Below are positions 122-39,040 of a stretch of DNA of 64,000 nucleotides, piece by piece; positions within the stretch are counted from its first letter, which is position 1, and every line of letters starts with the position of its first letter. Source of the DNA: an uncultured virus (IMG/VR IMGVR_UViG_3300044723_007864) (Duplodnaviria; Heunggongvirae; Uroviricota; Caudoviricetes); IMG/VR virus record IMGVR_UViG_3300044723_007864. One strand, 5' to 3'. The position numbers and the translations under genes are program-made. The notes under the pieces were generated by a model, which did not search any database, was not told the origin of the DNA, and saw only the letters and a list, made by a program, of their open reading frames with translations.

Positions 122-667
122 TTATTTTTTCTTGGCGCCTATTCTCCTTATAGAATATTCTTGACCCTCTTCTTGTATTTCTTTTATTTCTTCACTACTA
201 TCAAACCAATCAGGAAAATCTGACCATTTATGAAGAATTTTAAGATTAAGCTTTTTCGCTAAATCTACTTGAATAATATCTGGAGATGATATTAGATCTG
301 AGTAATCTAAAGAATAAGTGATGTATTCAGGAAATTTTGAAGCTTGTCTCATACAAGCCTCATATCTCTTCTTAGTTACCCATCCATTACAACTTTTTAG
401 AGTATCTTTTTTATTTCTAGTGACATTAATAATTTTTATATTGTTTTGTTTGATAATTTTAAATTGTTTCTTGAGTACCCCCGGCTTAAGCCAATTACTA
501 AACGCACTATCAATCGTACGTTTACCCACTTCAAATTTTGAATCAATAAACTCCTGCAGAGAAATTTCTTTTTTATTATAAACCGTTAATTCAAAAGCAT
601 TGAATAATCTTCGAACTAAAGTTGTTCCTGTCTTGGCACAACCTGTGATGAATATTTTATTTTTCAT
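122..667 (-). CDS. Sulfotransferase-family / P-loop protein
   Basis: N-terminal IFITGCAKTGTTLVRRL resembles the PAPS-binding 5'PSB loop of sulfotransferases; ATGA overlap with the upstream gene. Confidence 0.6.
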   Translation of the reverse strand: MKNKIFITGCAKTGTTLVRRLFNAFELTVYNKKEISLQEFIDSKFEVGKRTIDSAFSNWLKPGVLKKQFKIIKQNNIKIINVTRNKKDTLKSCNGWVTKKRYEACMRQASKFPEYITYSLDYSDLISSPDIIQVDLAKKLNLKILHKWSDFPDWFDSSEEIKEIQEEGQEYSIRRIGAKKK

Positions 668-1713
668 GATTTTCTATAAAATTTTTCTATAATTTCTATT
701 ACTTTCATTCCCTCGAAATAGTTACATGTGATTGGTTTGTTATTAGTCAGCACATCATAAACATTATTGTAGACATAACAATGATTAGCTGCAGACCCTT
801 TGTACAAACCGTAATCATTCGCTTCATTTGTAGGTTCTAATTCCGGCATGTTATAATGCTTTATATTACAATACTCAACTTCATTCATGTATTGACCACC
901 AATTTTTACTGTGCCATTTTCAGCCACAACAGTTATGTTGCTCTGTAAATTCGTATCGTAAACAGATGTAGTGAATGTAAAAACACCCATACCACCATTA
1001 ATAAAATCAAAAACAAAGCTACCTGTATCTTCAAAATCTGTTAATTTCTGGTGATTGAAATCTCGTGTTGTTCCTTTGATGTTTTTTATATCACCAAAAT
1101 ACCAATACATCAAATCTATAAAATGTGAGAATTGTGTGTATAAACTACCACCATCAAGAGCTACATCACCATGCCATGTATCTTCATGATAGTACCTCGC
1201 GTCTCTATTCCACATGCAATTGAGCTGCACAAGATAGATCTCACCTAATATTTTTAAGTCAATCAATTCCTTGAACCACACAGAAGGAGGTGAATATCGA
1301 TTCTGCATCACACAAAAAACCTGTCGTTGACTTTTAATAGACATCTGTATAATATGCTCAGCTTGCTGTCTTGTAAAACACATTGGTTTTTCCACTATTA
1401 CATGATAACCATTCTCTAAACACATTAAGGTTTGCTCGTAATGTAAACCATTTGGTGTAGCTATTGTAATAACATCTGAGTATTTTTTTAAAAATTTCTC
1501 GTTTTGTATAAAATTAAACAAATCAGTATAATATGTAGAATTATATTTTTCTGATAATGAAGCTTTGACTTGTGTATCGATCATCGCGCTCAATTCCAAT
1601 CCATCATGCCGATGAATCATTTCGATGTGTCGTTGCCCTATATGACCACAACCACATACAGCAATTTTAATTTTATTGTTAGGTTTTTTTATTTCTGTGG
1701 AGCCACTAATCAC
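664..1713 (-). CDS. Gfo/Idh/MocA oxidoreductase (WbpB/WlbA-like NDP-sugar 3-dehydrogenase)
   Basis: GCGHIG Rossmann motif, IATPNGLH, HVIVEKPM, QNRYSPP, DGGSLYTQFSHFIDL. Confidence 0.85.
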   Translation of the reverse strand: MISGSTEIKKPNNKIKIAVCGCGHIGQRHIEMIHRHDGLELSAMIDTQVKASLSEKYNSTYYTDLFNFIQNEKFLKKYSDVITIATPNGLHYEQTLMCLENGYHVIVEKPMCFTRQQAEHIIQMSIKSQRQVFCVMQNRYSPPSVWFKELIDLKILGEIYLVQLNCMWNRDARYYHEDTWHGDVALDGGSLYTQFSHFIDLMYWYFGDIKNIKGTTRDFNHQKLTDFEDTGSFVFDFINGGMGVFTFTTSVYDTNLQSNITVVAENGTVKIGGQYMNEVEYCNIKHYNMPELEPTNEANDYGLYKGSAANHCYVYNNVYDVLTNNKPITCNYFEGMKVIEIIEKFYRKS

Positions 1714-2000
1714 AGTTTAATCTTGCCTCGTATAATATCGAAAAACATTCTCCAATCTGATAATTTCGCCATCCATGGATTTTTAAATGCAGCTGGTTTA
1801 TTTTTCTCAAAAAAGAAGTGTCCGCTCCATGCAAATGGATAAACAACAAATGGAACTATTGGTATAGCATACCAAAATCGATATTTTACGATCAAAAAAA
1901 TCGTCAAGAGTGTGAACCATTGACCAATAAAGTGAAGCAATCTACAAATTCTGTTCTGATGTAGATTTAGATATTGTTGGTAATATTCAGAAAATCTCAT
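1710..2000 (-). CDS. DUF962/Mpo1-like small membrane protein
   Basis: YLNLHQNRICRLLHFIG...FAWSGHFFFEKNKPAAF signature; start at 2000 gives an ATGA overlap. Confidence 0.75.
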   Translation of the reverse strand: MRFSEYYQQYLNLHQNRICRLLHFIGQWFTLLTIFLIVKYRFWYAIPIVPFVVYPFAWSGHFFFEKNKPAAFKNPWMAKLSDWRMFFDIIRGKIKL

Positions 2001-2812
2001 TGGCAATTATCGTGATCATCACGCATAGTGTTTCTCTCGTTTATGCATGCGTTTATAATAGAGCTCGGTGTTTCTTTTCGTTTCATAAACTCATTTAGAG
2101 CGTTTGTGTCTTTAGGAAAACACAGCCCACCATAACTTATTTGACCATCAGGTCCAGGTACTGCTGTATGCATGGGATTCACCCAATTGTTTCTTATTAA
2201 AATCTGTTTAGCTACATTGTAATCGCAGTTTATTTTTTCACATAGTAAGTATATCTCAGTGAAGAATTGAACTTTGACGGAATAAAAATTATTTGCTACA
2301 AGCTTTGCAGTTTCTGATTCAACACTCTTACATGTTGTTATATGTGCCCATGGGTAATGCTTACTATGAAAATCTACAACATTATTAAATATTCCCACAC
2401 GGCAGTTTTTAGTTTTGCCAAGAACTATATGTTTTTGATTATGATAATCATCATTTGCAGTTCTCGCGGTCAGGAACTCCGGATTGTGAATAATATTCAA
2501 TGAAGTGTAATTTTCAGAAATTTTTTGACATGTGCCTGGTGTTACCGTTGATTTAATAACAACCGCTCCAGTGTATTTATTTTCACATAAAACACTACAC
2601 GTCTCTTCTATTGCTTGTGTGTTGTATGATGATGTGTCACTATTATATGGTGTAGGTAATGTTAAAAAACATATATCTGATTTTAAAACATCACGCAGTT
2701 CATGAGTACATGGCTTGAACTTATCATATAGAATGAGATTAATATTTTTTATTTTAAAACTATTCATCATCGCGGAGCCGACAAATCCTAAGCCTACAAT
2801 TGCAATTGTCAT
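1997..2812 (-). CDS. UDP-glucose/GDP-mannose dehydrogenase family protein
   Basis: IVGLGFVG, LPTP, IKSTVTPGT, NPEFL, GGLCFPKD catalytic motif; start set at ATG 2812, 5 nt after TAAATA. Confidence 0.88.
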   Translation of the reverse strand: MTIAIVGLGFVGSAMMNSFKIKNINLILYDKFKPCTHELRDVLKSDICFLTLPTPYNSDTSSYNTQAIEETCSVLCENKYTGAVVIKSTVTPGTCQKISENYTSLNIIHNPEFLTARTANDDYHNQKHIVLGKTKNCRVGIFNNVVDFHSKHYPWAHITTCKSVESETAKLVANNFYSVKVQFFTEIYLLCEKINCDYNVAKQILIRNNWVNPMHTAVPGPDGQISYGGLCFPKDTNALNEFMKRKETPSSIINACINERNTMRDDHDNCQ

Positions 2813-2834
2813 GCGTTTATTTATTGTTACAACA

Positions 2835-3491
2835 CTACGAATCAATATCTACACGCTTACCCCTACCACCGTTGTTACCAGTATTAATAACGATCATATC
2901 AAGCCACTGTTTGTGAGGTATTGTGTCGTGTAAAGCGCGAATAACACGATAATCCGACATCTGCCAAGCATCCCATTTTATATAATCTTTCCATTTGCTA
3001 TGAACACAAAGACAACTACCACCTATCCTACATGGCATTGGTTCATTGTTGAAGCATGTAGAGTGTGGAAAAACACGACCATCAGGGAATTGTATCTTCC
3101 AGTAAAACAAAACGTCATTCGAGTGTATATGGTTCACAAACTTTTCGATAACTGTAGGTCCTGCTAGATGGTCATCATCGTCAAGATACATTATCCATCC
3201 TTCATTAATAAACTGATTTGCTGTGTTTAAATATAGATTGTGAGGGAACAGCCCAGGTGTGTTCAAACCAGCCGGAACACCTGTACGATTCACGCTGGAT
3301 AGAATCTCCGTTTTGTTGATATAAAAATATTTAATATCATATTTCTCGAGATACACTTTGCTCGACATGTCATCAGTTATGACAACATGATTAATATTAT
3401 CGTATGTTTGACTAATTATCGATTCCTTAGTTTTTCTAAAACCATTAGGTCTACGCGATGTCCTGGTAATGATATTAATCAAAGGTTTCAT
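2835..3491 (-). CDS. Glycosyltransferase family 2 (GT-A)
   Basis: INIITRT start, WIMYLDDDD DxD motif, IGGSC; paralog of the adjacent gene. Confidence 0.8.
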   Translation of the reverse strand: MKPLINIITRTSRRPNGFRKTKESIISQTYDNINHVVITDDMSSKVYLEKYDIKYFYINKTEILSSVNRTGVPAGLNTPGLFPHNLYLNTANQFINEGWIMYLDDDDHLAGPTVIEKFVNHIHSNDVLFYWKIQFPDGRVFPHSTCFNNEPMPCRIGGSCLCVHSKWKDYIKWDAWQMSDYRVIRALHDTIPHKQWLDMIVINTGNNGGRGKRVDIDS

Positions 3492-4156
3492 ATATCTACT
3501 CGTGAGCAACTTCCTGGTATCGGCGCCTCAACAACAACACAATTGTACCATGCTTTGGTTGGTACAATATCATACAGAGCTGAAAAAAATCTATAATCCC
3601 CGCACTTCCAATTATCCCATTGTACTCTGTTTAAAAATTTTGTATGGTACGTGAAACAACTACCACCTATACCACATATTTGAGGCTTTTTACCGGTTCT
3701 CATTATTGAATCATCCGGTAGTGTTTTACCACCCATCCATTTCATTTTAAACATAATCAACGTATCGCGGTCACAATTATTTATAACTTTCTTAACAATC
3801 CTCTCTAGAGTTGTTGGACTCGAAAGATAATCATCGTCATCTAAATACATGATCCAACCAGGATCAACAATATCATGAATATGATTAAAATATAAATTAT
3901 ACGGGACATGAGGACCAGTCCCAGGGTCACTTATACAACCAACACCACTGTTTATAATCTGATTTAAATCGAACTGCACCACACACATACGCTCATTTTT
4001 GTTGATATAATCCAATGTTGTGTTTTTATCCGCGATAATAATATGCTTGTAGTTTGTGTATGTCTGAGACGTGATACTCTTGACATTGCGCGTAAAAGAT
4101 CTGGGTCGATCACATGTTCGTGTGATAATGTTAATAACCGGATTTTTCAGCGACAT
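3488..4156 (-). CDS. Glycosyltransferase family 2 (GT-A)
   Basis: INIITRT, GWIMYLDDDD, IGGSC, WDNWKCGDYR; tandem paralog; start set at ATG 4156. Confidence 0.8.
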   Translation of the reverse strand: MSLKNPVINIITRTCDRPRSFTRNVKSITSQTYTNYKHIIIADKNTTLDYINKNERMCVVQFDLNQIINSGVGCISDPGTGPHVPYNLYFNHIHDIVDPGWIMYLDDDDYLSSPTTLERIVKKVINNCDRDTLIMFKMKWMGGKTLPDDSIMRTGKKPQICGIGGSCFTYHTKFLNRVQWDNWKCGDYRFFSALYDIVPTKAWYNCVVVEAPIPGSCSRVDI

Positions 4157-4166
4157 ATTATCTATA

Positions 4167-4195
4167 ATAATATACACAAATGCATTAAAGTGCAA
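4167..4195 (-). promoter_or_regulatory. Sigma70-type promoter TTGCAC-N17-TATTAT for the GT2 pair
   Basis: Read on the minus strand; -10 box lies 10 nt before ATG 4156. Confidence 0.5.
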
Positions 4196-4208
4196 TAAAT
4201 ATACATAT

Positions 4209-4958
4209 ATGTCTCGATTAAAAACTCGTAAACGAGCAGCTAGTGTTGATGACACAGTTGTTCACGACATTAACGTTAAACTAGTAAAAAATGCTGATAC
4301 TAACTTCAAGATTGTTCAGAAATATAAACTAACAGATACACATAAAAGTTTCGTAGAATTAGGGTTCATAGACTCAACAAAAATGATGTTTGTTGATGGT
4401 CCTGCTGGTACGGCAAAAACATATTGTGCATCATTACTAGCTTTGAATTTATTGAAGAGCCATCGAATGAGCGAAATTGTTTACATAAGAAGCATAGTTG
4501 AATCTGCAAGTAAAAGCATGGGATCATTACCAGGTGAAGTAGATGATAAATTTTTACCATGGACTTTACCTCTTATGGAGAAAATGAATGAACTGCTCGA
4601 GCCTGGTGAAGTGAAATACTTGTTTGAAAAAAACATAATAAGAGCTGTGCCAGTTAATTACGTGCGAGGATTGACATTTACAGACAGTGTGGTGATAGTA
4701 GATGAAGCTCAAAACCTCACATTTAGTGAATTAACCACGATATTGACAAGGTTTGGTGACAATACAAAAATGATTGTGATTGGTGACACCAAACAATCTG
4801 ATATAAACGGCAAGAGTGGGTTCAAACCAATGTGTAAATGTTTTGATGATTCTGAGAGTGAGCAAAACGGTGTCTTTTGTTTCCGTTTTACAGACAAGGA
4901 CATCATGAGAAGTGAGATCCTGAGATTTCTGGTTCGGAAGATACAAACAAATAAATAA
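4209..4958 (+). CDS. phoH: PhoH-family ATPase
   Basis: GPAGTAKT Walker A, GSLPGEVDDK, YVRGLTF, IVDEAQN, LTRFG, GDTKQSD; start at 4209 after TAAATA (4196-4201). Confidence 0.93.
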   Translation: MSRLKTRKRAASVDDTVVHDINVKLVKNADTNFKIVQKYKLTDTHKSFVELGFIDSTKMMFVDGPAGTAKTYCASLLALNLLKSHRMSEIVYIRSIVESASKSMGSLPGEVDDKFLPWTLPLMEKMNELLEPGEVKYLFEKNIIRAVPVNYVRGLTFTDSVVIVDEAQNLTFSELTTILTRFGDNTKMIVIGDTKQSDINGKSGFKPMCKCFDDSESEQNGVFCFRFTDKDIMRSEILRFLVRKIQTNK

Positions 4959-5929: not shown

Positions 5930-6601
5930 TTAGTCTTTACTGACTTGTTCTTGCAAAGAAACCATATCTGGATCGATAATATCACTGATAGATGTGTCGT
6001 TAATAACATTACCATCATCATCGATATACATGCCTATCATCTGAAGTCTCTGTTGTGTGTTACCAAATATTTCAATGATCGCTGGTTGATCATCTTTTGG
6101 GAGAAACTGACAGCTACCAGTGAGGTATTGTTGGTGTAAAGCATCATATAGATGATGAATCTCTTTGTCTTGTTCTGTCAATTTACGTTCTGTTTTATCT
6201 GCTTTAGTGAATGGTAGTAAAAAAACTATATCTAAATAGCTCATAGATTCACGTATAAGAGGTACACACATGTCAATAAATTTCGAATCAATATCAGCCA
6301 CGTCACCAGCTTTCTCCATGATATATAATGAATAGATTATGTTGTCGAGCGGGCATCCATAAAACAACACATCATCATCTCTGTTGTATTTTTGCATGGT
6401 GTCAATCATATAGTTCAAAATATTCCACTGTATATCTTTACTTGATGTGTCACGACCATCTTTAGTATTTTTTTGGTGAATCGCTTCTATCACGTGTTTG
6501 TACGTCGTGTCTGGTGTGCTATAGTTTGGATACTTATTTAAAAACTTTTTGGTGAAGTCTGTCTTGCCTATGTTGCTAGTCCCGGATATTGATATTCTCA
6601 T
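5930..6601 (-). CDS. P-loop NTPase, nucleotide-kinase/AAA_28 (NadR-kinase)-like
   Basis: MRISISGTSNIGKT Walker A at the N-terminus; YGCPLD resembles the DRxxxD kinase motif; ATGA-coupled to the upstream PRT. Confidence 0.6.
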   Translation of the reverse strand: MRISISGTSNIGKTDFTKKFLNKYPNYSTPDTTYKHVIEAIHQKNTKDGRDTSSKDIQWNILNYMIDTMQKYNRDDDVLFYGCPLDNIIYSLYIMEKAGDVADIDSKFIDMCVPLIRESMSYLDIVFLLPFTKADKTERKLTEQDKEIHHLYDALHQQYLTGSCQFLPKDDQPAIIEIFGNTQQRLQMIGMYIDDDGNVINDTSISDIIDPDMVSLQEQVSKD

Positions 6602-7101
6602 TTGTCGCTTGGTTTAATTTCATCTGATTCCCATGGAAAAATAACCCACTCATCATTCTCTACAACTAGACCATTCCATGTAGGGTCAAAATCTGTATGT
6701 GGTTTTTTACACACGGTGCATGTATGAAAATTTATATCTGATTGATCGAATAATTTCATTGTGAGTTGATTTTTTACATAACCTAGAGACTCTCCGCGAT
6801 CTGATATATCATCAACGATGAGCACATGCTCTCCGGAAATATCTCCCGCGCCGCAGTGTTGATATGTCATAACATCACCACCTGTCTTGTTGCTATATGA
6901 TCTAATACCATATGAATAAACCCGTGATACTCCTAGTTGATTAGCAATCATCACAGCGGGTACAAGACCCCCTCTGCTCAGCCCTAGGATACTATCGAAT
7001 TGTATATTTGACGAAATGATATCATCACATATTTTGTCTACTGATTTTGTGATATCATTCCAGTTGAGGGCTCGTGTTTTATGTTTGACACTCACGCTCA
7101 T
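6598..7101 (-). CDS. Purine phosphoribosyltransferase (Gpt/XGPRT-like)
   Basis: LGLSRGGLVPA, PRPP-binding VLIVDDISDRGESL, C-terminal WVIFPWE; start 7101 overlaps the queE stop (ATGA). Confidence 0.88.
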   Translation of the reverse strand: MSVSVKHKTRALNWNDITKSVDKICDDIISSNIQFDSILGLSRGGLVPAVMIANQLGVSRVYSYGIRSYSNKTGGDVMTYQHCGAGDISGEHVLIVDDISDRGESLGYVKNQLTMKLFDQSDINFHTCTVCKKPHTDFDPTWNGLVVENDEWVIFPWESDEIKPSDK

Positions 7102-7880
7102 ACACCGGTTGTTTGATCCCACGCACTCACGTGCAATCTCGTTAATGCCCTGTAGCCATATTTTTTACCCATTTCCATACAGAATTTCGTACGCTCGTGA
7201 TAATCTTTCTGCTTATCTAAGCCAGGCATCATGAGTATATTTTTTGATGGTATATCAAAAGGCTCAATAAAATCTCGCTCAATTTCTCTCAGACAATCTT
7301 CAGTGCTGATTACGAACTTGAACCAGTAATTATCGTGTTCCATTATCCGTTTGATAGCTTCTGGATTGATTCTTCTATTCTTGCTCATGCCACTGTTTTC
7401 GAGTTTAACACTACAATTGATTTGAGATAAATTTTTAAACAGCTCATCTTGTATGTAGATAGTACCGTTAGTTTCAATTTCATTAAACAAATTGAGCTCT
7501 ATATCAGTCTCTTCTTCTTTTTTGATAAAGGTATCGAACCAGTTAAGAAACGATACAATAGCTCGCTGATTCTTAGGTATTGTAGGTTCTCCACCTGTCC
7601 AGATCAAGTTGACACGACCGTCAATAACCCACGGTAAAATATTTTGTTCGAGCCATCTATCTATAAGATAATCAAAAGGTTTTTCTAAACCTTTTTTCCA
7701 CACGTACTCGGTATCACACCACCATGTGGCCTTTCCTTCCTTAACCAAGGATCCATCTGTCCCGCCGCACATCAAGTTACAAGCTTTGAGCCTGATAAAA
7801 TAAGCCGGTACACCGCTGGTATGGCCTTCACCTTGGACACTGTAAAAATCTTCTGATATGTTTAAAGTTTCAATTTTCAT
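7098..7880 (-). CDS. queE: 7-carboxy-7-deazaguanine synthase (radical SAM)
   Basis: SEDFYSVQGEG, FIRLKACNLMC...WCDT, TGGEP, IETNGT, SVKL, RLHV. Confidence 0.9.
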   Translation of the reverse strand: MKIETLNISEDFYSVQGEGHTSGVPAYFIRLKACNLMCGGTDGSLVKEGKATWWCDTEYVWKKGLEKPFDYLIDRWLEQNILPWVIDGRVNLIWTGGEPTIPKNQRAIVSFLNWFDTFIKKEEETDIELNLFNEIETNGTIYIQDELFKNLSQINCSVKLENSGMSKNRRINPEAIKRIMEHDNYWFKFVISTEDCLREIERDFIEPFDIPSKNILMMPGLDKQKDYHERTKFCMEMGKKYGYRALTRLHVSAWDQTTGV

Positions 7881-7922
7881 AAACCTATTTTTTAAATATG
7901 TCTATATGATAAACCTATTTCT

Positions 7923-8537
7923 TTAAAATAGCCACGAATTTTTCGGAGCTTTTGGATCAACCCATTTATTTTTTACTTTATTAGTGTTTGAGCTGATGTT
8001 GTTTGTCGGTTTGTTCTTCACTGGAGATGCCACAACCGGTGCTGGTTTTACATCTTTGTTTCCCATAAAATCCGTTAATGCCTGCTCACTAACGACCGGC
8101 TTTGTAGTTGGTTCATAAATAGCTGAATTGTTTTCATGTTCAAATACTTCTACTTTGACACATCTGCACCTATTGTTAGTTAATTCACTTACATGTTGAT
8201 TCGCTGCTCGGTGACACCATTCTGCAAATTTTTCAATACCAACACCATCCATGATTCTTAAATCACATACACCTGCTTGTTCTAAACGTTTAAACTCATC
8301 AAGTTTAGGATCAACCCTAGAGATACAGGTGGTGTGATCAAATTGACTTTGCAAGATACTCTTTAATTCTTTCAAGCCACCAAAATCAACAACCCAATTG
8401 TTTTGATCTAGAGATTCAGCTTCAAACCAGAACTTTGCGGTTAATCTGTAACCATGTAAATATTTGCAATGTGATTCAGCGGTTGGTTGTCTGAACGCAC
8501 AACTACCTAGCTCGATAATTTTTGTACTTTTAAACAT
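7923..8537 (-). CDS. queD: 6-carboxy-5,6,7,8-tetrahydropterin synthase
   Basis: HCKYLHGY, WVVDFGGLKELK, FDHT, VEVFEHENNSA; extra low-complexity C-terminal tail. Confidence 0.9.
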   Translation of the reverse strand: MFKSTKIIELGSCAFRQPTAESHCKYLHGYRLTAKFWFEAESLDQNNWVVDFGGLKELKSILQSQFDHTTCISRVDPKLDEFKRLEQAGVCDLRIMDGVGIEKFAEWCHRAANQHVSELTNNRCRCVKVEVFEHENNSAIYEPTTKPVVSEQALTDFMGNKDVKPAPVVASPVKNKPTNNISSNTNKVKNKWVDPKAPKNSWLF

Positions 8538-8549
8538 GATATAATTATA

Positions 8550-8822
8550 TTATACCTTGTTATCTTTTTCAAGTTTTATTTCATACCACTGAATGACTGC
8601 GACGACTGAATCAGCAAACCAGCACACGCCAGAGCTAGCCAATGGTAACAATATGTTGTTAGTGTGACATCCAATCATGACACCAGACCAAAACCCCAAA
8701 CACAAGCTACATTTGAACAACTCTTTAAACAAGGCTACACGACACAGTACTGATCGCACCGGAGTGAGTATGGTGCCGTACTTGAGTATAAATGTCAACC
8801 CGACACAGGCGAGTAGCTCCAT
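8550..8822 (-). CDS. Small membrane protein (DUF1360-like)
   Basis: ELFKCSLCLGFWSG CxxC motif within hydrophobic segments. Confidence 0.6.
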   Translation of the reverse strand: MELLACVGLTFILKYGTILTPVRSVLCRVALFKELFKCSLCLGFWSGVMIGCHTNNILLPLASSGVCWFADSVVAVIQWYEIKLEKDNKV

Positions 8823-9035: not shown

Positions 9036-9458
9036 TTACTGTTCTACTTTTATTAGAGACAATTTTTTTGGTTCATCAATATTCTTCAACTGCATGTGAC
9101 TTATTGTGAATTTACTGTCAACTGTCCCATTTTTATCTTCAATGACAACGTTGAAAACTCCTGGTGTGTCTGATGTGATATGTATACGTTTTTTAATATT
9201 ACTATCAACCGCTGTCAAGCTCATAGCACTGCCTGTATCACTGTAGGATATAACTTTACCGTTGTAACCCTCAACAAAATCACCATCACCCTTCTTTATA
9301 TGTATTGACACTCTATTGTATTTGAAGTCTTCAACTGGTATTGATATTTTCTTTTCCTCAACCACAATAGGAGCACTATACACATGTCTTTGTGTTATTC
9401 TGTTTATATCATTATACAAAGAGTATAAATTATTCATGTCTGTTTGTAATTCACTCAT
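9036..9458 (-). CDS. Hypothetical protein
   Basis: ORF coupled to the upstream gene. Confidence 0.55.
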   Translation of the reverse strand: MSELQTDMNNLYSLYNDINRITQRHVYSAPIVVEEKKISIPVEDFKYNRVSIHIKKGDGDFVEGYNGKVISYSDTGSAMSLTAVDSNIKKRIHITSDTPGVFNVVIEDKNGTVDSKFTISHMQLKNIDEPKKLSLIKVEQ

Positions 9459-10228
9459 CTCAACAGTATATCAACAACCTTATCTTTCACATCTTCATCA
9501 CCTGGTAGATTTTTTCTGATCGATTCAAAATCACCACGTGATAATGACCCTGCGAGTATTTGCTCACGTATATCATTTGAGGTTTTAATATCTTTTTTCT
9601 TGAAAGACGATACATGTGGTCTTATACCGCTTGCGCTAGCCAACCTTTTGTTTAAACCTTTTTTAACACCCAATACATTAACCCCTGTGTATCGTTTAAA
9701 CTCATCTTCTACATCAAACGGAAACCCACTATACCTCCCGGAAAAATCTTCTTTACCTGCATAAACTGTCACATTATATTTGTCATAATTATTCATACTA
9801 TCATATATTTTTTGAGCTACCGGATGCGCGGATGTGAATCTACCAGTGGAAGAGTATTCCCCACCGGTGTTTAACAAATGCACGACGTCATATGTTGCTG
9901 TTAATACTGTGCCAATTGCACCAGTGTCTTGATCTCGAAAGTTAGGCACAGTGACAACCTTTAATCGATCATCTCCATTGTATTGCTTATACACGTCCCA
10001 TATTTCTCGAGATTGTTCTGCTGAAATCTCCCCAGAACCTTCACCTCTCGACTGACCGGATATCATTACAACAACCACGTCGTTTTGCTTTAATGCTGCT
10101 AGTGCAGCTTCATAATGACCGACATGTGGTGGTTTGAACGCACCGGGATACAAACCAACATTCAAACTGCTAGACAATTGCTCGAACACATTAACATGCT
10201 CTACTAACCAGTCGTAATCTCTGTTCAT
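9455..10228 (-). CDS. HxGH nucleotidyltransferase (cytidyltransferase-like)
   Basis: YPGAFKPPHVGH signature and C-terminal SASGIR motif. Confidence 0.75.
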   Translation of the reverse strand: MNRDYDWLVEHVNVFEQLSSSLNVGLYPGAFKPPHVGHYEAALAALKQNDVVVVMISGQSRGEGSGEISAEQSREIWDVYKQYNGDDRLKVVTVPNFRDQDTGAIGTVLTATYDVVHLLNTGGEYSSTGRFTSAHPVAQKIYDSMNNYDKYNVTVYAGKEDFSGRYSGFPFDVEDEFKRYTGVNVLGVKKGLNKRLASASGIRPHVSSFKKKDIKTSNDIREQILAGSLSRGDFESIRKNLPGDEDVKDKVVDILLR

Positions 10229-10656: not shown

Positions 10657-10685
10657 TTGAAATGTGTAATATATTACTATATAAT
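10657..10685 (+). promoter_or_regulatory. Sigma70-type promoter TTGAAA-N17-TATAAT for folE
   Basis: Exact 17-nt spacer; ATG 7 nt after the -10 box. Confidence 0.75.
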
Positions 10686-10692
10686 TGAAGAT

Positions 10693-11337
10693 ATGACAGA
10701 TTATAAGTTACCTTTTGCAAATGGCAATCATCCTAGAACCGAAGAGGAAAAAGAACAAATCATCAACAACGCTGCAAAAGCGTACGAAGCATACATGGAT
10801 GCCCTAGGGTTTGATTGGAGATCGGATCCTAATAGTGCTGATACACCTCGCCGCGTGGCGAAAGCATTTGTGAACGATTTAGCGGTTGGTTGCTATGATC
10901 AGCCCCCGAAAATAACAACTTTCGATAATGTGGATCATTATGACGGGTTAGTATTCCAAGGTAATATTAAAACAAATAGTTTTTGTTCTCATCATCACTT
11001 ACCTTTCATTGGAAACACACACGTGGCATATATACCCGGTAGAGATGGAAAGGTGATTGGTCTGAGCAAGTTGAATAGAATTGTCGAGTGGTTTTCTAGA
11101 CGACCACAAGTTCAAGAAAATCTAACCATGCAAATTCACAAATATATTGATGAAGTATGTGAAGATAACAAAGGTGTAGCTGTGCTTGTTGAGGCTAATC
11201 ATACATGTGCTGGTTTACGAGGTGTGAAACACGATAGTACCATGAAGACCGCGAGGATGAGTGGTGCTTTTCTTGATAGAGAGGATATAAACACACGTCA
11301 AGAGTTTTATGATTTTGTAAGAGATTTGAGGAGATAA
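10693..11337 (+). CDS. folE: GTP cyclohydrolase I
   Basis: DTPRRVAK, SFCSHHHLPF, IGLSKLNRIV, RPQVQENLT, HTCAGLRGVK; start set at ATG 10693. Confidence 0.95.
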   Translation: MTDYKLPFANGNHPRTEEEKEQIINNAAKAYEAYMDALGFDWRSDPNSADTPRRVAKAFVNDLAVGCYDQPPKITTFDNVDHYDGLVFQGNIKTNSFCSHHHLPFIGNTHVAYIPGRDGKVIGLSKLNRIVEWFSRRPQVQENLTMQIHKYIDEVCEDNKGVAVLVEANHTCAGLRGVKHDSTMKTARMSGAFLDREDINTRQEFYDFVRDLRR

Positions 11338-11960: not shown

Positions 11961-13481
11961 TTATCTAGCTTTTTTAAATCTAAAAAAACCATTAAGCTCG
12001 TTCAATGCCGGAAACGAGCCTGTCAATTTATAAACAGAATGTGTTTTTGTACCTGGCTTTTTATATGTGAATAAAATACCTTCTGTAGGTACAATTTTAT
12101 CAAGACCACCGGCTCTTTGTATCACATCAAGATATCCCTGTATTTGATCTATATGATCAGGATTTCTCGATTCTCTGACACGTTTCATAACACTCTCTAT
12201 TGATCTTTTGATCTCAGCACTTGATTGTTCTTGTGTACCTAGAGCTAAATAATCACTCATGTTGTTAATTACTGTGATACCTAGATCCATGATTAAATCA
12301 ATCACTGGTTGCTTCACTCGTCTCATCATGTGACGATTTGCCGAACCAGTGTTTTGTGAATCTACCCACTCTTTAAACATGACATCTGGACCAGCACCAG
12401 GTGCTGTATCATTTGTAGTTATGTTTTTTGTAGGTACAATTTTATCGCGAATTTGTTTAATGTCTGGTTTTTTCACCCCATGGAGCCATCTATCAACCAA
12501 CATGTTCACCACATCACTTGGTACCTGGTAGCCGATTTCTTCTGCCGCTGTGTAAATCATATTCACCAACCGCCCGGTGTAGTAATCACCTAACGTGTTT
12601 CTATCTGTGAGTGAAAATTCTTGTTGTATTTTTTTTATCTCACTTAAAAACTCCTCGCGACTCTCTTCAAAATCTTCTATTGTTATAGACCTCCCTGGTG
12701 TGACTAATCTATCCCAACGTTTGTTTATATTAGGTAGAGACGCCACATCAAAATATCGCTGATTTTGAGCTCCTACATTTCTTAATTGCTCCTGCACGTC
12801 TGTCGCAAATTGATTAAAATCACTAGTTACTCTTTTTTTACCGAACTGATCATACGCTACATAATTATGTAACACGATCATTCTATGGTTGTATGGTATA
12901 ACATTTGTAGTTTCCGGCCAGACAATTTCAAAATGTAGCCAGTTTTTAACACGAACTGTTTCATACACAAACTCTCCACGTTTATCTTTAATTGGTTCTC
13001 CTCGTTTGTCAATTTTAGGCACCCTCTTGTCACTAGAGAAGAAACGATCTCGCCTCACAACCGCTGGTAGTTGATTTATAGCTGCAGTTAAATCTTTAGC
13101 AGCAAACGTGAATGCTTTGATCAAATCTCTTCTCGCCGCACGTTCTGCTGGACTCACATCACTAAATTTTGAATGCACATGTTTCCATGACTTCAATGCA
13201 CTTTCTCCGAAGTTCTTCACATTACCAACATTTCTAGCAAATATGATATTATCAACATTATCTTCATCAATTGACACGGCTAGTGCTTGCCCATCAATTT
13301 TCTCTTTAATTTCACCGTCAATTTCTCCTTTGAGTAATCCAACCACCATTTGATTGAGAGCTTCAAATGGAAGGTCTAAATCTTCATATATATGACACAT
13401 GTGACCATACAAACCACCTTCAAGTAACAATCCGGGATTTTTATGATATGTTGCGAAATCGTTTGTAATACTAACCTTCAT
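11961..13481 (-). CDS. Ligase-like nucleotidyltransferase (DUF6267-like phage protein)
   Basis: GHMCHIYED, then EKIDG (motif I KxDG), HFEIV, TEGILF and YKLTG in the order of ligase motifs I/III/IV/V. Confidence 0.55.
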   Translation of the reverse strand: MKVSITNDFATYHKNPGLLLEGGLYGHMCHIYEDLDLPFEALNQMVVGLLKGEIDGEIKEKIDGQALAVSIDEDNVDNIIFARNVGNVKNFGESALKSWKHVHSKFSDVSPAERAARRDLIKAFTFAAKDLTAAINQLPAVVRRDRFFSSDKRVPKIDKRGEPIKDKRGEFVYETVRVKNWLHFEIVWPETTNVIPYNHRMIVLHNYVAYDQFGKKRVTSDFNQFATDVQEQLRNVGAQNQRYFDVASLPNINKRWDRLVTPGRSITIEDFEESREEFLSEIKKIQQEFSLTDRNTLGDYYTGRLVNMIYTAAEEIGYQVPSDVVNMLVDRWLHGVKKPDIKQIRDKIVPTKNITTNDTAPGAGPDVMFKEWVDSQNTGSANRHMMRRVKQPVIDLIMDLGITVINNMSDYLALGTQEQSSAEIKRSIESVMKRVRESRNPDHIDQIQGYLDVIQRAGGLDKIVPTEGILFTYKKPGTKTHSVYKLTGSFPALNELNGFFRFKKAR

Positions 13482-30097: not shown

Positions 30098-30126
30098 TTG
30101 AAAAAACGCTGTTAGTATGTTATAAT
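30098..30126 (+). promoter_or_regulatory. Sigma70-type promoter TTGAAA-N17-TATAAT (extended TG) for the queC operon
   Basis: ATG 7 nt after the -10 box. Confidence 0.75.
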
Positions 30127-30133
30127 AACATGT

Positions 30134-30841
30134 ATGGTTAAAAAATGTGTATTACCTCTGAGCGGTGGCCTGGATTCAACGGTTATAGCTCACATGGCTC
30201 ACGCGGAAGGTTTCGAGATATACTCGTTAACTTTTCATTATGGTCAGCGACATTACCGTGCAGAGTTAGGATGCGCCCGGCGTCAAGCAGAAAAACTAGC
30301 CAAGCATCATAGATTGATTGAAGCTGGATTTGTCCGAGATCTTGCTAGCACAAGCGCTCTCACAAATGATACAATCAAAGTCGCGAAAACAAAAGACGTA
30401 CTTGGGGATCCACAGACCGTCAATTATGTGCCCAACAGAAACATGATGTTGCTGAGCATGTGCACGGCATATGCTGAGACTGTAGGAGCCAGTACCGTGT
30501 TTCATGGGGCCGCTTTAGTGGATAGCCAGGCAGGATTTTGGGATGGAAGCAAAGAGTTTTTACATGCAATAAACAATGTAAACAAGCTGAATCGTCGCAA
30601 CGTTGTGGAGATTGTAGCTCCATTGATACTCAAGAGCAAAGCCGACATAGTGAAATGTGGCGTGGATCTAGGTGTTGATTTTTCTAAAACATGGACATGT
30701 TATGAAGGTCAAGAGCAAGCCTGTGGTGAATGTACTGCCTGCAGCAGCAGAATAAAAGGGTTTATAGATGCAGGCTATATTGATCCGGTAAAATATGCAA
30801 TAGATATACCGTGGGAGAAATACAATTGTAAGAATATATAA
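30134..30841 (+). CDS. queC: 7-cyano-7-deazaguanine synthase
   Basis: LSGGLDST, FHYGQRH, YVPNRN, zinc site TCY...ACGECTAC..R. Confidence 0.92.
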   Translation: MVKKCVLPLSGGLDSTVIAHMAHAEGFEIYSLTFHYGQRHYRAELGCARRQAEKLAKHHRLIEAGFVRDLASTSALTNDTIKVAKTKDVLGDPQTVNYVPNRNMMLLSMCTAYAETVGASTVFHGAALVDSQAGFWDGSKEFLHAINNVNKLNRRNVVEIVAPLILKSKADIVKCGVDLGVDFSKTWTCYEGQEQACGECTACSSRIKGFIDAGYIDPVKYAIDIPWEKYNCKNI

Positions 30842-30846
30842 TAAAC

Positions 30847-31512
30847 ATGTGTGGTATATTCGGAGCTAAAAAATTTCATACATTTGATCGATTGTATAGT
30901 GCGAACAAAGATCGAGGTACATTTTCTCATGGCTTCATGTATTTGAAAAAAAATGGAATCATGCACCTCAAGAGGAGAAAAGGCATTACAACACTCACCG
31001 GTCAATATGGTTGGCAGTATCAACTTGATTATGATTTGTATCTAGGTCACACACAAGCACCGACATCATCTGTCAGGCATTACAGGGCTAAATACTCTCA
31101 CCCGTTTGAGCATGGTAATTTTATTGTGGCACACAACGGTGTATTGGAAAACCATCTAGAATTAGCTGAAGAGCATCGAATCGACCCAAATATAATAAAA
31201 GTGGATAGCCAGATAATACCGATGTTGCTGGATGATTTATTTGTGGGGAGTGATGTACTGGCTATACAGGAAGTGTGTAATCTATTGAAAGGTATATTCA
31301 GTTGCTGGATATATTGCAAAAAGACCAAGCTTACATATGTTGTGCGGAGCGGATGTACATTATACACAAATGACAATCTAACAACATTTTCATCTATAAA
31401 GTTTAATAAAACGAAAAACGAACTTGACCAGGGAATTATATATTGTTTTACACCTGAAGGACTGACTAATGTGGGTACATTTGCATCTGATAATCCGTTC
31501 TTTGTTTTATGA
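30847..31512 (+). CDS. Standalone class II (Ntn) glutamine amidotransferase
   Basis: MCGIFG N-terminal nucleophile, GHTQAPT, HPF, HNGVLEN, VDS. Confidence 0.85.
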   Translation: MCGIFGAKKFHTFDRLYSANKDRGTFSHGFMYLKKNGIMHLKRRKGITTLTGQYGWQYQLDYDLYLGHTQAPTSSVRHYRAKYSHPFEHGNFIVAHNGVLENHLELAEEHRIDPNIIKVDSQIIPMLLDDLFVGSDVLAIQEVCNLLKGIFSCWIYCKKTKLTYVVRSGCTLYTNDNLTTFSSIKFNKTKNELDQGIIYCFTPEGLTNVGTFASDNPFFVL

Positions 31513-32216
31513 AAAATAACAAAATATTAGTTGTTTCAGCTACACGCTCGAGCACCACAAAAAACACATTGCTTTCAAAATCATTACAGGCTATGTCTCA
31601 CAACAACAAGATTGTAGACAAACAATATGATGTCAAGTTTCACACAAATAATACACAGCCATTACCGATTGTGTACAATCAATACATAAATGATAAAACT
31701 CTCAAGAGATATAAGATTGTGTTGTTCGTGCATGATGATGTGTATATTGACGACCTCGGGTGTTTTGACAAGATAAACACAAACGTACACACCTACAAAA
31801 ACGACATAATAGGACTAGCGGGAGCCACTAGTGTAAAAATTCAAAAACCGACTTTATGGCATTTGATGTCTGAAAGAAAAAATCAAACCGGGGCGGTGGC
31901 ACATTTTGATTCCACTGGTACATTACTGAGTACCACATGTTTCGGTCAATATCCGAAACGATGTCTAGTACTAGATGGTTTGTTTTTAGCTGTCAATATT
32001 GAATCAGCATTGAAGGTTGGTTGGAAGTTTAATGAATCATTTCGATTTCATCATTATGATATTGCATCATGTTTAGATGCCAATAATCTTCGCATGAAAA
32101 TGAGCACCTGTAATATACATGTGGTACACGCTTCTCCAGGTCTTGCGGATTACAATGATAAAACTTTCCAACAATCGCAAGATATTTTCTTGCAAAAATA
32201 CGGACCATCTACATAA
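31509..32216 (+). CDS. Glycosyltransferase (GT-A-like)
   Basis: VLFVHDDVYIDD, IIGLAG, LDGLFLA, FHHYDI; ATGA-coupled to the amidotransferase. Confidence 0.7.
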   Translation: MKNNKILVVSATRSSTTKNTLLSKSLQAMSHNNKIVDKQYDVKFHTNNTQPLPIVYNQYINDKTLKRYKIVLFVHDDVYIDDLGCFDKINTNVHTYKNDIIGLAGATSVKIQKPTLWHLMSERKNQTGAVAHFDSTGTLLSTTCFGQYPKRCLVLDGLFLAVNIESALKVGWKFNESFRFHHYDIASCLDANNLRMKMSTCNIHVVHASPGLADYNDKTFQQSQDIFLQKYGPST

Positions 32217-32224
32217 TCAAACAT

Positions 32225-33553
32225 ATGAGCAGCATCGATTGGGATTTTTATGAAAATATTATTGTATACAATGCACTGACAAGCAGAGACTACCTGGCAA
32301 GTATAATTGATCAAACAGATCCGCAATATTTTAACAGCAAGGACATCCGGTGCGTGTTTGATATAATTACAAATTTTTTCACAACACGTAATGAAATACC
32401 AACATTAACAGAGGTGAAGAGTTATTTAACAACACCAGAAGCAAAAGACGCGTTTAGAAAAGTTGTGAGTAAATTCAAAGATATCGGTAAGCAATACAAC
32501 AGAGACGAGTTGTATGAGAATACTGAGAGGTTTCTAAAAGAACGCGCGGTGTATACAACCATGCTAGATGTTGCTGATCAATGCTCAAAAGATAAAATAG
32601 ACACAGGAGAAATTTACGATAAATTTCACAAAGCCTGTAATGTGTCGCTAGCAATCGACAAGGGACATGATTACTTTAATGATATTGATGCTCACATTGA
32701 AGATCTGCTCACAATAGATAGTACCATATCATCAAATTGGCCGTGGCTGGATGAAAAAATAGGCGGAGGTTTTCTAGAGAATGGGAGAGCCATCTATATA
32801 TTTGCCGGAGAAACTAACATAGGTAAATCAATATTTCTAGGTAATATAGCCACTAATATAGCTAAGTCTGGTAAAACCGTTGTATTGATCACACTTGAGA
32901 TGAGTGAGATGGTTTATTCTAAAAGACTGAGCAGTGATATTACAAAAATACCAATAGGAACATTACACACCATGACCGATGAATTGAAAAACCGGGCATT
33001 AGATTTTCAGCAGAAAACTAAATCCGGTATACTTGTCAAGGAATTTCCACCCAACACAATTACATGTAGTCAGGTAAGATCATTTATAGAGAAAGTGATA
33101 AACAGCGGTATAGATGTAGGTGCTATTGTGTTAGATTATGTAAATTTATTGAAAAGCAACCGCGGTACTAATTCGTACGAGCGTGTTAAATATGCTACCG
33201 AGGAACTTCGAGCTCTTAGTTATACATTCAAATGCCCGATCATAACAGCAACACAACTCAATCGATCTGGTTATAATGAAGTTAGTCCAGAACTTGACAC
33301 GATAAGTGAGAGTATAGGTCTAGCTGCTACAGCAGATGCTATATTCGGAATTTGGCAAGAAGAGGAAGATGCAGAGCTTGGAATTATAAAAATCGGCATG
33401 ATGAAAAATAGATTCGGTCCTAATTTCGGAAGCACTACACTCAATATCAATTACAACACATTAACAATAACTGATGATTTTGAAAAACAAACAGAACACA
33501 GCACTGCTGATATAAACGCAGCAACATCAGCATTAAACTTGTTAGCAGATTAG
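32225..33553 (+). CDS. gp41: Replicative DNA helicase (DnaB-like)
   Basis: GETNIGKS, ITLEMSE, VLDYVNL, TATQLNR, SESIGL, KNRFG. Confidence 0.93.
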   Translation: MSSIDWDFYENIIVYNALTSRDYLASIIDQTDPQYFNSKDIRCVFDIITNFFTTRNEIPTLTEVKSYLTTPEAKDAFRKVVSKFKDIGKQYNRDELYENTERFLKERAVYTTMLDVADQCSKDKIDTGEIYDKFHKACNVSLAIDKGHDYFNDIDAHIEDLLTIDSTISSNWPWLDEKIGGGFLENGRAIYIFAGETNIGKSIFLGNIATNIAKSGKTVVLITLEMSEMVYSKRLSSDITKIPIGTLHTMTDELKNRALDFQQKTKSGILVKEFPPNTITCSQVRSFIEKVINSGIDVGAIVLDYVNLLKSNRGTNSYERVKYATEELRALSYTFKCPIITATQLNRSGYNEVSPELDTISESIGLAATADAIFGIWQEEEDAELGIIKIGMMKNRFGPNFGSTTLNINYNTLTITDDFEKQTEHSTADINAATSALNLLAD

Positions 33554-34817: not shown

Positions 34818-34846
34818 TTGAAAAAAACAACAACCCAGTATATAAT
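34818..34846 (+). promoter_or_regulatory. Sigma70-type promoter TTGAAA-N17-TATAAT for gp32
   Basis: ATG 12 nt after the -10 box. Confidence 0.72.
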
Positions 34847-38818: not shown

Positions 38819-39028
38819 ATGAATTTTGTAACAGTTAAAAATATTGCATCCCCTCTCACTGGTGGTCTGAGTAAACCACGTATAATGAAGTTTGAAAGAG
38901 ATGGGAAAATCTATGAAGAAGCTCACTGGTACTGTCCTGATTCTGGTCAATTCATTATGAAGGGTGTTGTTTCAATAACTGAAAAAAACAACAAGCCCAC
39001 TCCGGATAAAGTTGAAAATCCAGAATAA
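38819..39028 (+). CDS. Small hypothetical protein
   Basis: TAAATA 7 nt upstream; WYCPDSG. Confidence 0.6.
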   Translation: MNFVTVKNIASPLTGGLSKPRIMKFERDGKIYEEAHWYCPDSGQFIMKGVVSITEKNNKPTPDKVENPE

Positions 39029-39040
39029 TTATGATATAAT
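39012..39040 (+). promoter_or_regulatory. Sigma70-type promoter TTGAAA-N17-TATAAT (extended TG) for the primase gene
   Basis: GTG start 6 nt after the -10 box. Confidence 0.72.

Follow-up and report, generated by a model that had tools for sequence, protein, structure and literature searches.

A phage operon coupling queE to a purine phosphoribosyltransferase gene and a kinase-like gene, and its probable place in a DpdA3-type DNA-modification system

Main

According to the published model, each 7-deazaguanine of phage DNA is put in place after replication by a DpdA enzyme, an activity that has never been shown biochemically for the DpdA3 class. Whether such bases might enter DNA by another route is the question raised by a four-gene operon of an uncultured virus (IMG/VR record IMGVR_UViG_3300044723_007864), in which homologues of queD and queE are followed by genes for a purine phosphoribosyltransferase (PRT) and a P-loop protein of kinase fold. 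The source contig is linear, 99,915 bases long and 46% complete according to CheckV; its first 64 kb, to which all unlabelled positions refer, are called the window here. A sequence-only reading of the window had proposed that the PRT and the kinase carry the base into the deoxynucleoside triphosphate (dNTP) pool independently of DpdA. We find instead that the locus most likely belongs to the published DpdA3-type system described for Flavobacterium phage immuto_2-6A, and that its gene set is not new. Dependence of the system on DpdA3 is highly probable, and we tentatively regard the operon as the precursor and salvage arm of that system, not as a DpdA-independent route.

The operon and the precursor pathway

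All four genes are on the minus strand, arranged head to tail within 5930–8537. The first, queD (7923–8537; 204 amino acids (aa)), encodes a homologue of 6-carboxytetrahydropterin synthase (PF01242, E = 2.2e-18; phrog_2389, 2.3e-34) that ends in a low-complexity tail of about 60 aa. The second, queE (7098–7880; 260 aa), encodes a homologue of the radical SAM synthase that makes 7-carboxy-7-deazaguanine (CDG); it matches phrog_2076 (8.9e-45), has no Pfam match at E ≤ 0.01 and reaches at best 5e-18 with the NCBIfam QueE models, all of them below cut-off. The third (6598–7101; 167 aa) specifies a Gpt-class purine PRT (PF00156, 7.4e-16; phrog_8995, 1.9e-18), and the fourth (5930–6601; 223 aa) a P-loop protein of the AAA_28/dNK/TMPK kinase fold, with a sub-threshold match to AAA_28 (9.7e-4). 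The last three genes are joined, as the sequence-only reading had it, by ATGA stop/start overlaps that can be read in the sequence between queE and the PRT gene (7098–7101) and between the PRT and kinase-like genes (6598–6601). The listing of open reading frames (ORFs) gives the PRT a GTG start at 7122; the ATG at 7101 agrees with the N-termini of its homologues. A blastn search with the operon gave no match among isolated phages.

PHROG scans of 98 of the 103 contig ORFs of at least 50 aa (the five omitted ORFs encode 53–69 aa) show the phage, judged by its predicted genes, to be a distant T4-like myovirus. Its replication genes include those for a family-B polymerase, UvsX, UvsY, a gp32-like single-stranded-DNA-binding protein (SSB), a helicase, a primase, a gp46/47-like nuclease and a clamp loader, and other T4-type genes encode a late sigma factor, sheath, tube and baseplate wedge. 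The remaining precursor genes lie elsewhere in the window on the plus strand, where the sequence-only reading had placed them: folE, for GTP cyclohydrolase I (10693–11337; PF01227, 3.6e-47; phrog_2197, 3.9e-58), and queC, for 7-cyano-7-deazaguanine synthase (30134–30841; PF06508, 1e-56; TIGR00364, 1.1e-51, above cut-off). Directly 3′ of queC, a class-II glutamine amidotransferase-like gene (30847–31512, plus strand; PF13522, 6.7e-7; phrog_14519 and phrog_4736) likely provides the ammonia source for QueC. Homology shows in FolE, QueD, QueE, QueC and the adjacent amidotransferase a set of predicted enzymes with which the phage should be able to make the free base preQ0.

DpdA3 lies beyond the contig in the closest relative

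The sequence-only reading had recognised no transglycosylase-like ORF in the 64 kb, and we likewise found no recognisable gene for DpdA or another enzyme like tRNA-guanine transglycosylase (TGT) anywhere on the contig, inside the window or outside it. The phrog_887 profile, which contains the DpdA of phage 9g, found nothing in the contig or in three complete relatives, and the same search recovered the 9g control; phrog_19058, phmmer searches with three DpdA3 references and the PHROG scans gave no DpdA match in the contig either. A genome search with the Pfam TGT profile PF01702 was negative for the contig and for five relatives. These negatives were discarded because the same search misses the described DpdAs of 9g, immuto_2-6A, phiST and CP220; claims of TGT-less phages that rest on a PF01702 genome search are unreliable. 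The DpdA family models used here were instead those of the phages themselves, namely phrog_887 for 9g, phrog_19058 for CP220 and immuto_2-6A, and phrog_20335 for phiST.

With phrog_19058, one gene was detected in each of the complete relatives G001, G002 and G003 (E values from 1e-45 to 1e-64), in four of five further related records and in 10 of 19 fragments. DpdA3 is thereby found in 17 of 27 related records, including all three complete genomes. The DpdA3 profile has no sequence relative among solved structures and no similarity to the DpdA1 of 9g. A structural model of the homologue from the closest relative, G006 (pLDDT 87.2), gave a different picture, in that almost all of its best 50 Foldseek matches are TGTs (E = 1e-7, TM 0.6–0.67). 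By fold comparison only, and not by sequence methods, DpdA3 is thus predicted to have the TGT fold. In Brevundimonas phage MaInes, a 266-aa hypothetical protein encoded between queE and the DNA polymerase gene (L009:1658-2458) is DpdA3-like as well (hhalign probability 88.6%, E = 2.6e-6).

The relative G006 is a contig of 63,393 bases whose PRT and kinase are 90% and 93% identical to those of the window. Its positions 33,362–63,352 are colinear with 682–29,606 of our contig at about 88% nucleotide identity (range 72–89%), and our contig starts at about G006 position 32,700. The G006 homologue of DpdA3 (12,458–13,258; E = 3e-52) lies about 27 kb downstream of the G006 kinase gene, a position some 20 kb past the left end of our contig. 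It is followed by genes for a PurN-like formyltransferase (TIGR00639, 3.8e-12), a phrog_2107 kinase and QueF (TIGR03138, 7.7e-73), which is the order DpdA3, DpdN, kinase, QueF of immuto_2-6A. On these predicted functions, the relatives can go on from preQ0 to preQ1 through QueF, and probably to a formylated form through the PurN-like enzyme.

Because the contig is only 46% complete and the DpdA3 of its colinear relative maps off the contig, the absence of DpdA here means little; most likely, the DpdA-free appearance arises because the contig is truncated and the enzyme family divergent. What the sequence-only reading said of gene identities and operon structure stands. Its central claim of a DpdA-independent route does not, as DpdA3 is encoded by the nearest relative, where it is predicted to have the TGT fold, and by all of the complete ones; synteny suggests the same for the genome at hand. 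The strict form of that claim, in which there is no transglycosylase and the PRT and kinase suffice to deliver the base to DNA by way of the dNTP pool, can appeal to 99.9 kb in which no DpdA-like gene is seen. Set against the incompleteness of the contig, the position of DpdA3 in G006 and its presence in all three complete relatives, we consider it very unlikely.

Comparison with characterised systems

Like the phage studied here, immuto_2-6A is a myovirus with a large genome in which the genes for QueD, QueE, the PRT and FolE are clustered. The two differ in that their PRTs are only 29% identical and that immuto_2-6A has a family-A polymerase, whereas the polymerase here is of the T4-type family B. 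In addition, the PRT gene is here wedged between queE and the gene of a second, paralogous kinase with overlapping codons, and DpdA3 is not observed on this contig. The Campylobacter CP220 group, in which all G is replaced by 2′-deoxy-7-amido-7-deazaguanosine (dADG), and Cellulophaga phage phiST, which contains 2′-deoxy-7-deazaguanosine (dDG), also have, within one genome, DpdA3, P-loop kinases and a PRT of the Gpt type. In CP220, DpdA3 is followed by a phrog_2107 kinase, and in phiST the PRT is followed by a deoxynucleoside monophosphate (dNMP) kinase. Their PRTs are 24–28% identical to ours, and their genes are scattered and do not form one operon. According to PMC10516641, CP220 and phiST stop at CDG-derived bases, without QueC or QueF. 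The radical SAM gene next to the CP220 PRT gave no match to the window QueE at E ≤ 1e-3.

The DpdA1-type phages 9g and CAjan make their base with FolE, QueD, QueE and QueC (or Gat-QueC), as would be the case here. They differ from this phage in that no phrog_887 member was found in this contig or the searched relatives, and 9g is not among the phage records that match the PRT; PMC10516641 gives their replacement as partial, up to about 30%. A likeness of another kind is to the tubercidin and toyocamycin pathways, whose PRTs TubE and ToyH are encoded beside homologues of FolE, QueD and QueE, similar to the phage PRT. Those pathways lead to a nucleoside antibiotic that is secreted, and not to DNA, and in the phage attachment could be done by the enzyme of TGT fold.

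The phosphoribosyltransferase

A family profile built from 20 PRT sequences matched archaeal purine PRTs and the xanthine-guanine PRT (XGPRT) of E. coli and Yersinia over the full length (7e-27 to 3e-21). E. coli Gpt and archaeal purine PRTs are also the best solved matches (PDB 1A95, 1NUL, 1VDM and 4Z1O; 7e-27 to 5e-21). The PF00156 score of the window protein is 58 bits against a cut-off of 26. Residues D97, D98, D101, G103, W152, F155, P156 and W157 are invariant in the 20 sequences, and the protein keeps the acidic loop that marks the site for phosphoribosyl pyrophosphate (PRPP) and a C-terminal W-x-x-F-P-W motif. With the NCBIfam model of xanthine PRT (NF006613) it reaches 70.8 bits against a cut-off of 138. 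By sequence, it is a Gpt-class type I PRT and not an orthologue of xanthine PRT.

A tblastn search against isolated phages returned 30 records, all below 36% identity. By phage host these include Campylobacter (14), Cellulophaga (5), Flavobacterium (4), Brevundimonas (2), Escherichia (1), Salmonella (1) and Synechococcus (1). The PRT-bearing groups of Campylobacter, Cellulophaga and Flavobacterium are those for which PMC10516641 reports full modification and the presence of DpdA3. Among the 27 related records, a clear Gpt-like PRT was found in 12, all of which have DpdA3; Gpt-like PRTs and kinases of the dNK/TMPK fold widely accompany DpdA3 systems. In most relatives, 3–19 kb separate the PRT gene from DpdA3, and it adjoins neither queE nor the kinase gene; such adjacency was seen in 1 of 80 loci. 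The complete genome G001 encodes DpdA3 and both kinases and has no Gpt-like PRT, which fits an accessory role of the PRT. In immuto_2-6A and MaInes the PRT gene adjoins folE; in MaInes, genes for a dNMP kinase, FolE and the PRT stand in a row, with ribonucleotide reductase (RNR) beside them.

As a separate observation, G001 encodes a 288-aa PRPP-synthetase-like protein (locus L111, G001:12805-16071; ORF 1363–2229, minus strand).

The kinase-fold protein

The fourth gene of the operon belongs to a large family with members at 327 IMG/VR loci; for 80 of them we examined flanks of up to 10 kb. These flanks contain queE in 63 of the 80 loci, queD in 53 and folE in 38; phoH is the commonest neighbour (66 of 80), and a phoH-like gene is present in the window as well (4128–4958, plus strand; PF02562, 1.9e-48), as a conserved neighbour of the queE–kinase locus. 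The window protein carries a Walker A loop, GTSNIGKT, at residues 7–14, and scores 19.8 bits with AAA_28 against a gathering cut-off of 27. Across 19 family members, all matched AAA_28 at E ≤ 0.01 (best 1.9e-15) and six matched dNK, whereas no thymidylate-, guanylate- or adenylate-kinase model was matched at that threshold. The best sequence match among solved structures is a deoxynucleoside kinase of Mycoplasma mycoides (2jaq; E = 0.005). To a structural model of pLDDT 83, thymidylate kinase (TMPK), deoxyadenosine kinase, deoxycytidine kinase and NadR are about equally similar (TM 0.5–0.6). The model places the protein in the AAA_28/dNK/TMPK fold group, a fold that would suit a nucleoside kinase or a nucleoside monophosphate kinase alike. 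A tblastn search with the kinase found no match in isolated phages.

The protein is paralogous to the phrog_2107 kinase (hhalign probability 96.4%, E = 1.1e-9). The gene for the latter directly follows DpdA3, with or without DpdN between them, in six of eight loci and in immuto_2-6A, and it stands directly after DpdA3 in three distant phage groups. At residues 81–82, the window protein and its G006 counterpart have Tyr-Gly, in place of the Asp-Arg that 75 of 80 relatives keep; in nearer homologues this site is DG or EG. The Asp-Arg of the family aligns with the DR after strand 2 of the M. mycoides deoxynucleoside kinase. The Arg of the Asp-Arg motif matters for kinase catalysis. A kinase with Tyr-Gly may, judged from this substitution, have a changed substrate or have lost activity. 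A link between adjacency of the PRT gene and loss of the Arg was considered and rejected, as loci L211 and L212 have the order queE–PRT–kinase with DR intact.

Pre- or post-replicative insertion

In the reading that we tentatively favour, DpdA3 would attach the modified base to deoxyribose and release guanine in exchange. The Gpt-class PRT would then convert the displaced guanine, with PRPP, to GMP; the kinase of the dNK/TMPK fold would phosphorylate a guanine-type nucleoside or nucleotide, and GTP would flow back to FolE. PMC10516641 states that DpdA3 phages replace all G, and presents DpdA3 as the inserting enzyme. Granted dependence on DpdA3, guanine recycling is on balance the probable task of the PRT, and a TubE-like activation of deazaguanine a lesser though sizeable possibility; we prefer recycling because of the substrates that this family tends to use, the lack of a Gpt-like PRT in G001 and the adjacency of the PRT gene to folE in immuto_2-6A and MaInes.

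Several findings weigh against this reading. The DpdA3 of this phage would be one placed by synteny, none being seen on its own contig, and PMC10516641 reports that DpdA3 activity was never shown and that tests in E. coli failed. The same text cites the nucleoside of 7-amido-7-deazaguanine (ADG) as present in infected cells; together with complete replacement of G, this would fit better with a nucleotide-level route. In the window, the start codon of the PRT gene shares bases with the stop codon of queE, the gene for the CDG synthase, and the order queE–PRT–kinase is seen again in G006 as well as in 10 of 80 metagenome loci, down to a PRT identity of 35% (L193 ends after the PRT gene). TubE of the tubercidin pathway is a proven CDG-specific PRPP transferase, as reported by Liu et al. 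2018 (PMC6112128). A tubercidin-type cluster in a metagenome-assembled genome of Actinomycetota (L121:4934-11849) encodes QueD, a radical SAM protein, FolE, GMP reductase, a PRT 32% identical to the phage PRT, a Nudix protein, UbiD, a flavoprotein and a PfkB kinase. The system also has a tight link to two kinases that are paralogues of each other, and pure guanine salvage would hardly require both. In favour of recycling, by contrast, searches of the three complete relatives for HD and MazG enzymes, which would clear dGTP, found none. Run without a phage positive control, and by the same genome-search approach that missed known phage DpdAs with PF01702, this negative weighs only weakly against a pool-level route.

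The explanation that gains most from these points is a nucleotide-level, pre-replicative route, in which a TubE/ToyH-like PRT would join CDG, preQ0 or preQ1 to PRPP, the kinases and RNR would take the resulting nucleotide to the dNTP stage, and insertion would fall to the T4-type polymerase, with DpdA3 auxiliary or acting at the nucleotide level. Besides the ATGA coupling and the recurrence of the gene order, it draws on the CDG specificity reported for TubE, the TubE-type L121 enzyme being of the same PRT family, and on the presence of Gpt-like PRTs in exactly the isolated groups that PMC10516641 reports to replace all G (CP220, phiST and immuto_2-6A). The phiST PRT gene adjoins genes for a dNMP kinase and RNR, which are also near it in MaInes, and each of the three complete relatives has RNR-like genes. 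In a quick tree of 104 PRT sequences, L121 falls outside the archaeal (housekeeping) and Brachyspira clades, in an unresolved polytomy with the phage PRTs on long branches. That tree, unresolved at depth, gives no supported pairing of the TubE-type L121 with phage PRTs, however, and G001 has DpdA3 and both kinases with no Gpt-like PRT. The PRT gene is rarely beside queE or the kinase gene (the single locus in 80 noted above), the fold built for 7-substituted deazaguanines is that of DpdA3 and not of the PRT, and no HD or MazG enzyme was found in the complete relatives. We regard this route as rather unlikely. In like measure we doubt a variant in which DpdA3 would swap the base on a free deoxynucleoside or deoxynucleotide before replication, the two kinases would raise it to a dNTP, and the PRT would recycle guanine or activate deazaguanine. 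The pre-replicative idea survives only as a rival that depends on DpdA3.

Two further explanations dispense with a specific role for these genes in DNA modification. The PRT and the kinase could be ordinary nucleotide-salvage genes of the phage. The PRT is of the Gpt class with housekeeping-type relatives, and among its 80 nearest cellular homologues, 79 lack a neighbouring gene for QueE, QueD or FolE; T4-like phages are rich in nucleotide-metabolism genes, and phoH is the commonest neighbour of the kinase gene. This is improbable in view of the 12 of 12 relatives in which a clear Gpt-like PRT is accompanied by DpdA3, the nearness of the kinase gene to queE in 63 of 80 loci, the paralogue directly after DpdA3 in three distant phage groups and the start/stop overlaps with queE. 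Alternatively, the preQ0 genes could raise queuosine in host tRNA and help translation while the DNA stays unmodified, as PMC6884629 proposes for DpdA-less phages. We give this hardly any credence, since in the relatives DpdA3, QueF and a DpdN-like gene are arranged as in a phage with fully modified DNA. The reading in which the operon supplies precursors and salvage to a DpdA3-type system, although tentative, remains the one we prefer.

What the locus adds is one more lineage whose pathway has a purine PRT and dedicated small kinases built in, in this case with overlapping codons. It keeps alive the question of how complete replacement of G is achieved, before or after replication, and singles out the PRT, the kinase and DpdA3 as three enzymes whose substrates bear on it. 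Judged by listings and abstracts, we found no paper that gives a phage PRT or kinase a part in the pathway, nor one combining 7-deazaguanine, phage, phosphoribosyltransferase and DpdA. The term DpdA3 was found only in the 2023 paper (PMC10516641) and in unrelated yeast papers, and in the main text of the former the word 'kinase' is absent and 'ribosyl' occurs only in the context of PurN.

A promoter-like motif shared with replication genes

The sequence-only reading had placed sigma-70-type promoters at folE and queC, and an exact TTGAAA-N17-TATAAT motif (11 of 12 consensus matches) indeed precedes both genes directly, at 10657–10685 and 30098–30126 on the plus strand. A third copy lies directly upstream of queD (8544–8572, minus strand), and the other two (34818–34846 and 39012–39040) precede the SSB and primase genes. 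The window thus contains five exact copies against 0.09 expected, whereas generic sigma-70-like sites show no excess (25 against 24.5 in shuffled sequences). The motif is a candidate for an early or middle promoter class. Since it stands before queD, folE and queC as well as before the SSB and primase genes, the deazaguanine pathway is probably switched on together with replication genes.

Neighbouring genes

With its separate amidotransferase gene, queC resembles the Gat-QueC fusion known from phage 9g, but split in two. The amidotransferase-like gene is overlapped by a glycosyltransferase-like gene (31509–32216; PF13712, 4.9e-9), whose product might further decorate the base or the DNA. Upstream of queD, the minus strand at 9455–10228 encodes a 257-aa protein with a HIGH-type nucleotidyltransferase motif and weak matches to nicotinamide mononucleotide and pantetheine-phosphate adenylyltransferases; it is kept at the same place in G006 and in the metagenome loci L197, L198 and L211.

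Two sugar-handling clusters are present on the contig, which is unusual for a phage. One, at 122–4156 of the window, comprises genes for a sulfotransferase-like protein, a GFO/IDH/MocA oxidoreductase, a UDP-glucose dehydrogenase-like protein and two GT2-like proteins. The other, at 91.9–99.4 kb of the contig (L002:13939-18454 and L003:8504-9418), encodes a GT47 exostosin-like protein, a DXD glycosyltransferase, a CAP59-type mannosyltransferase-like protein and a nucleotide-sugar epimerase.

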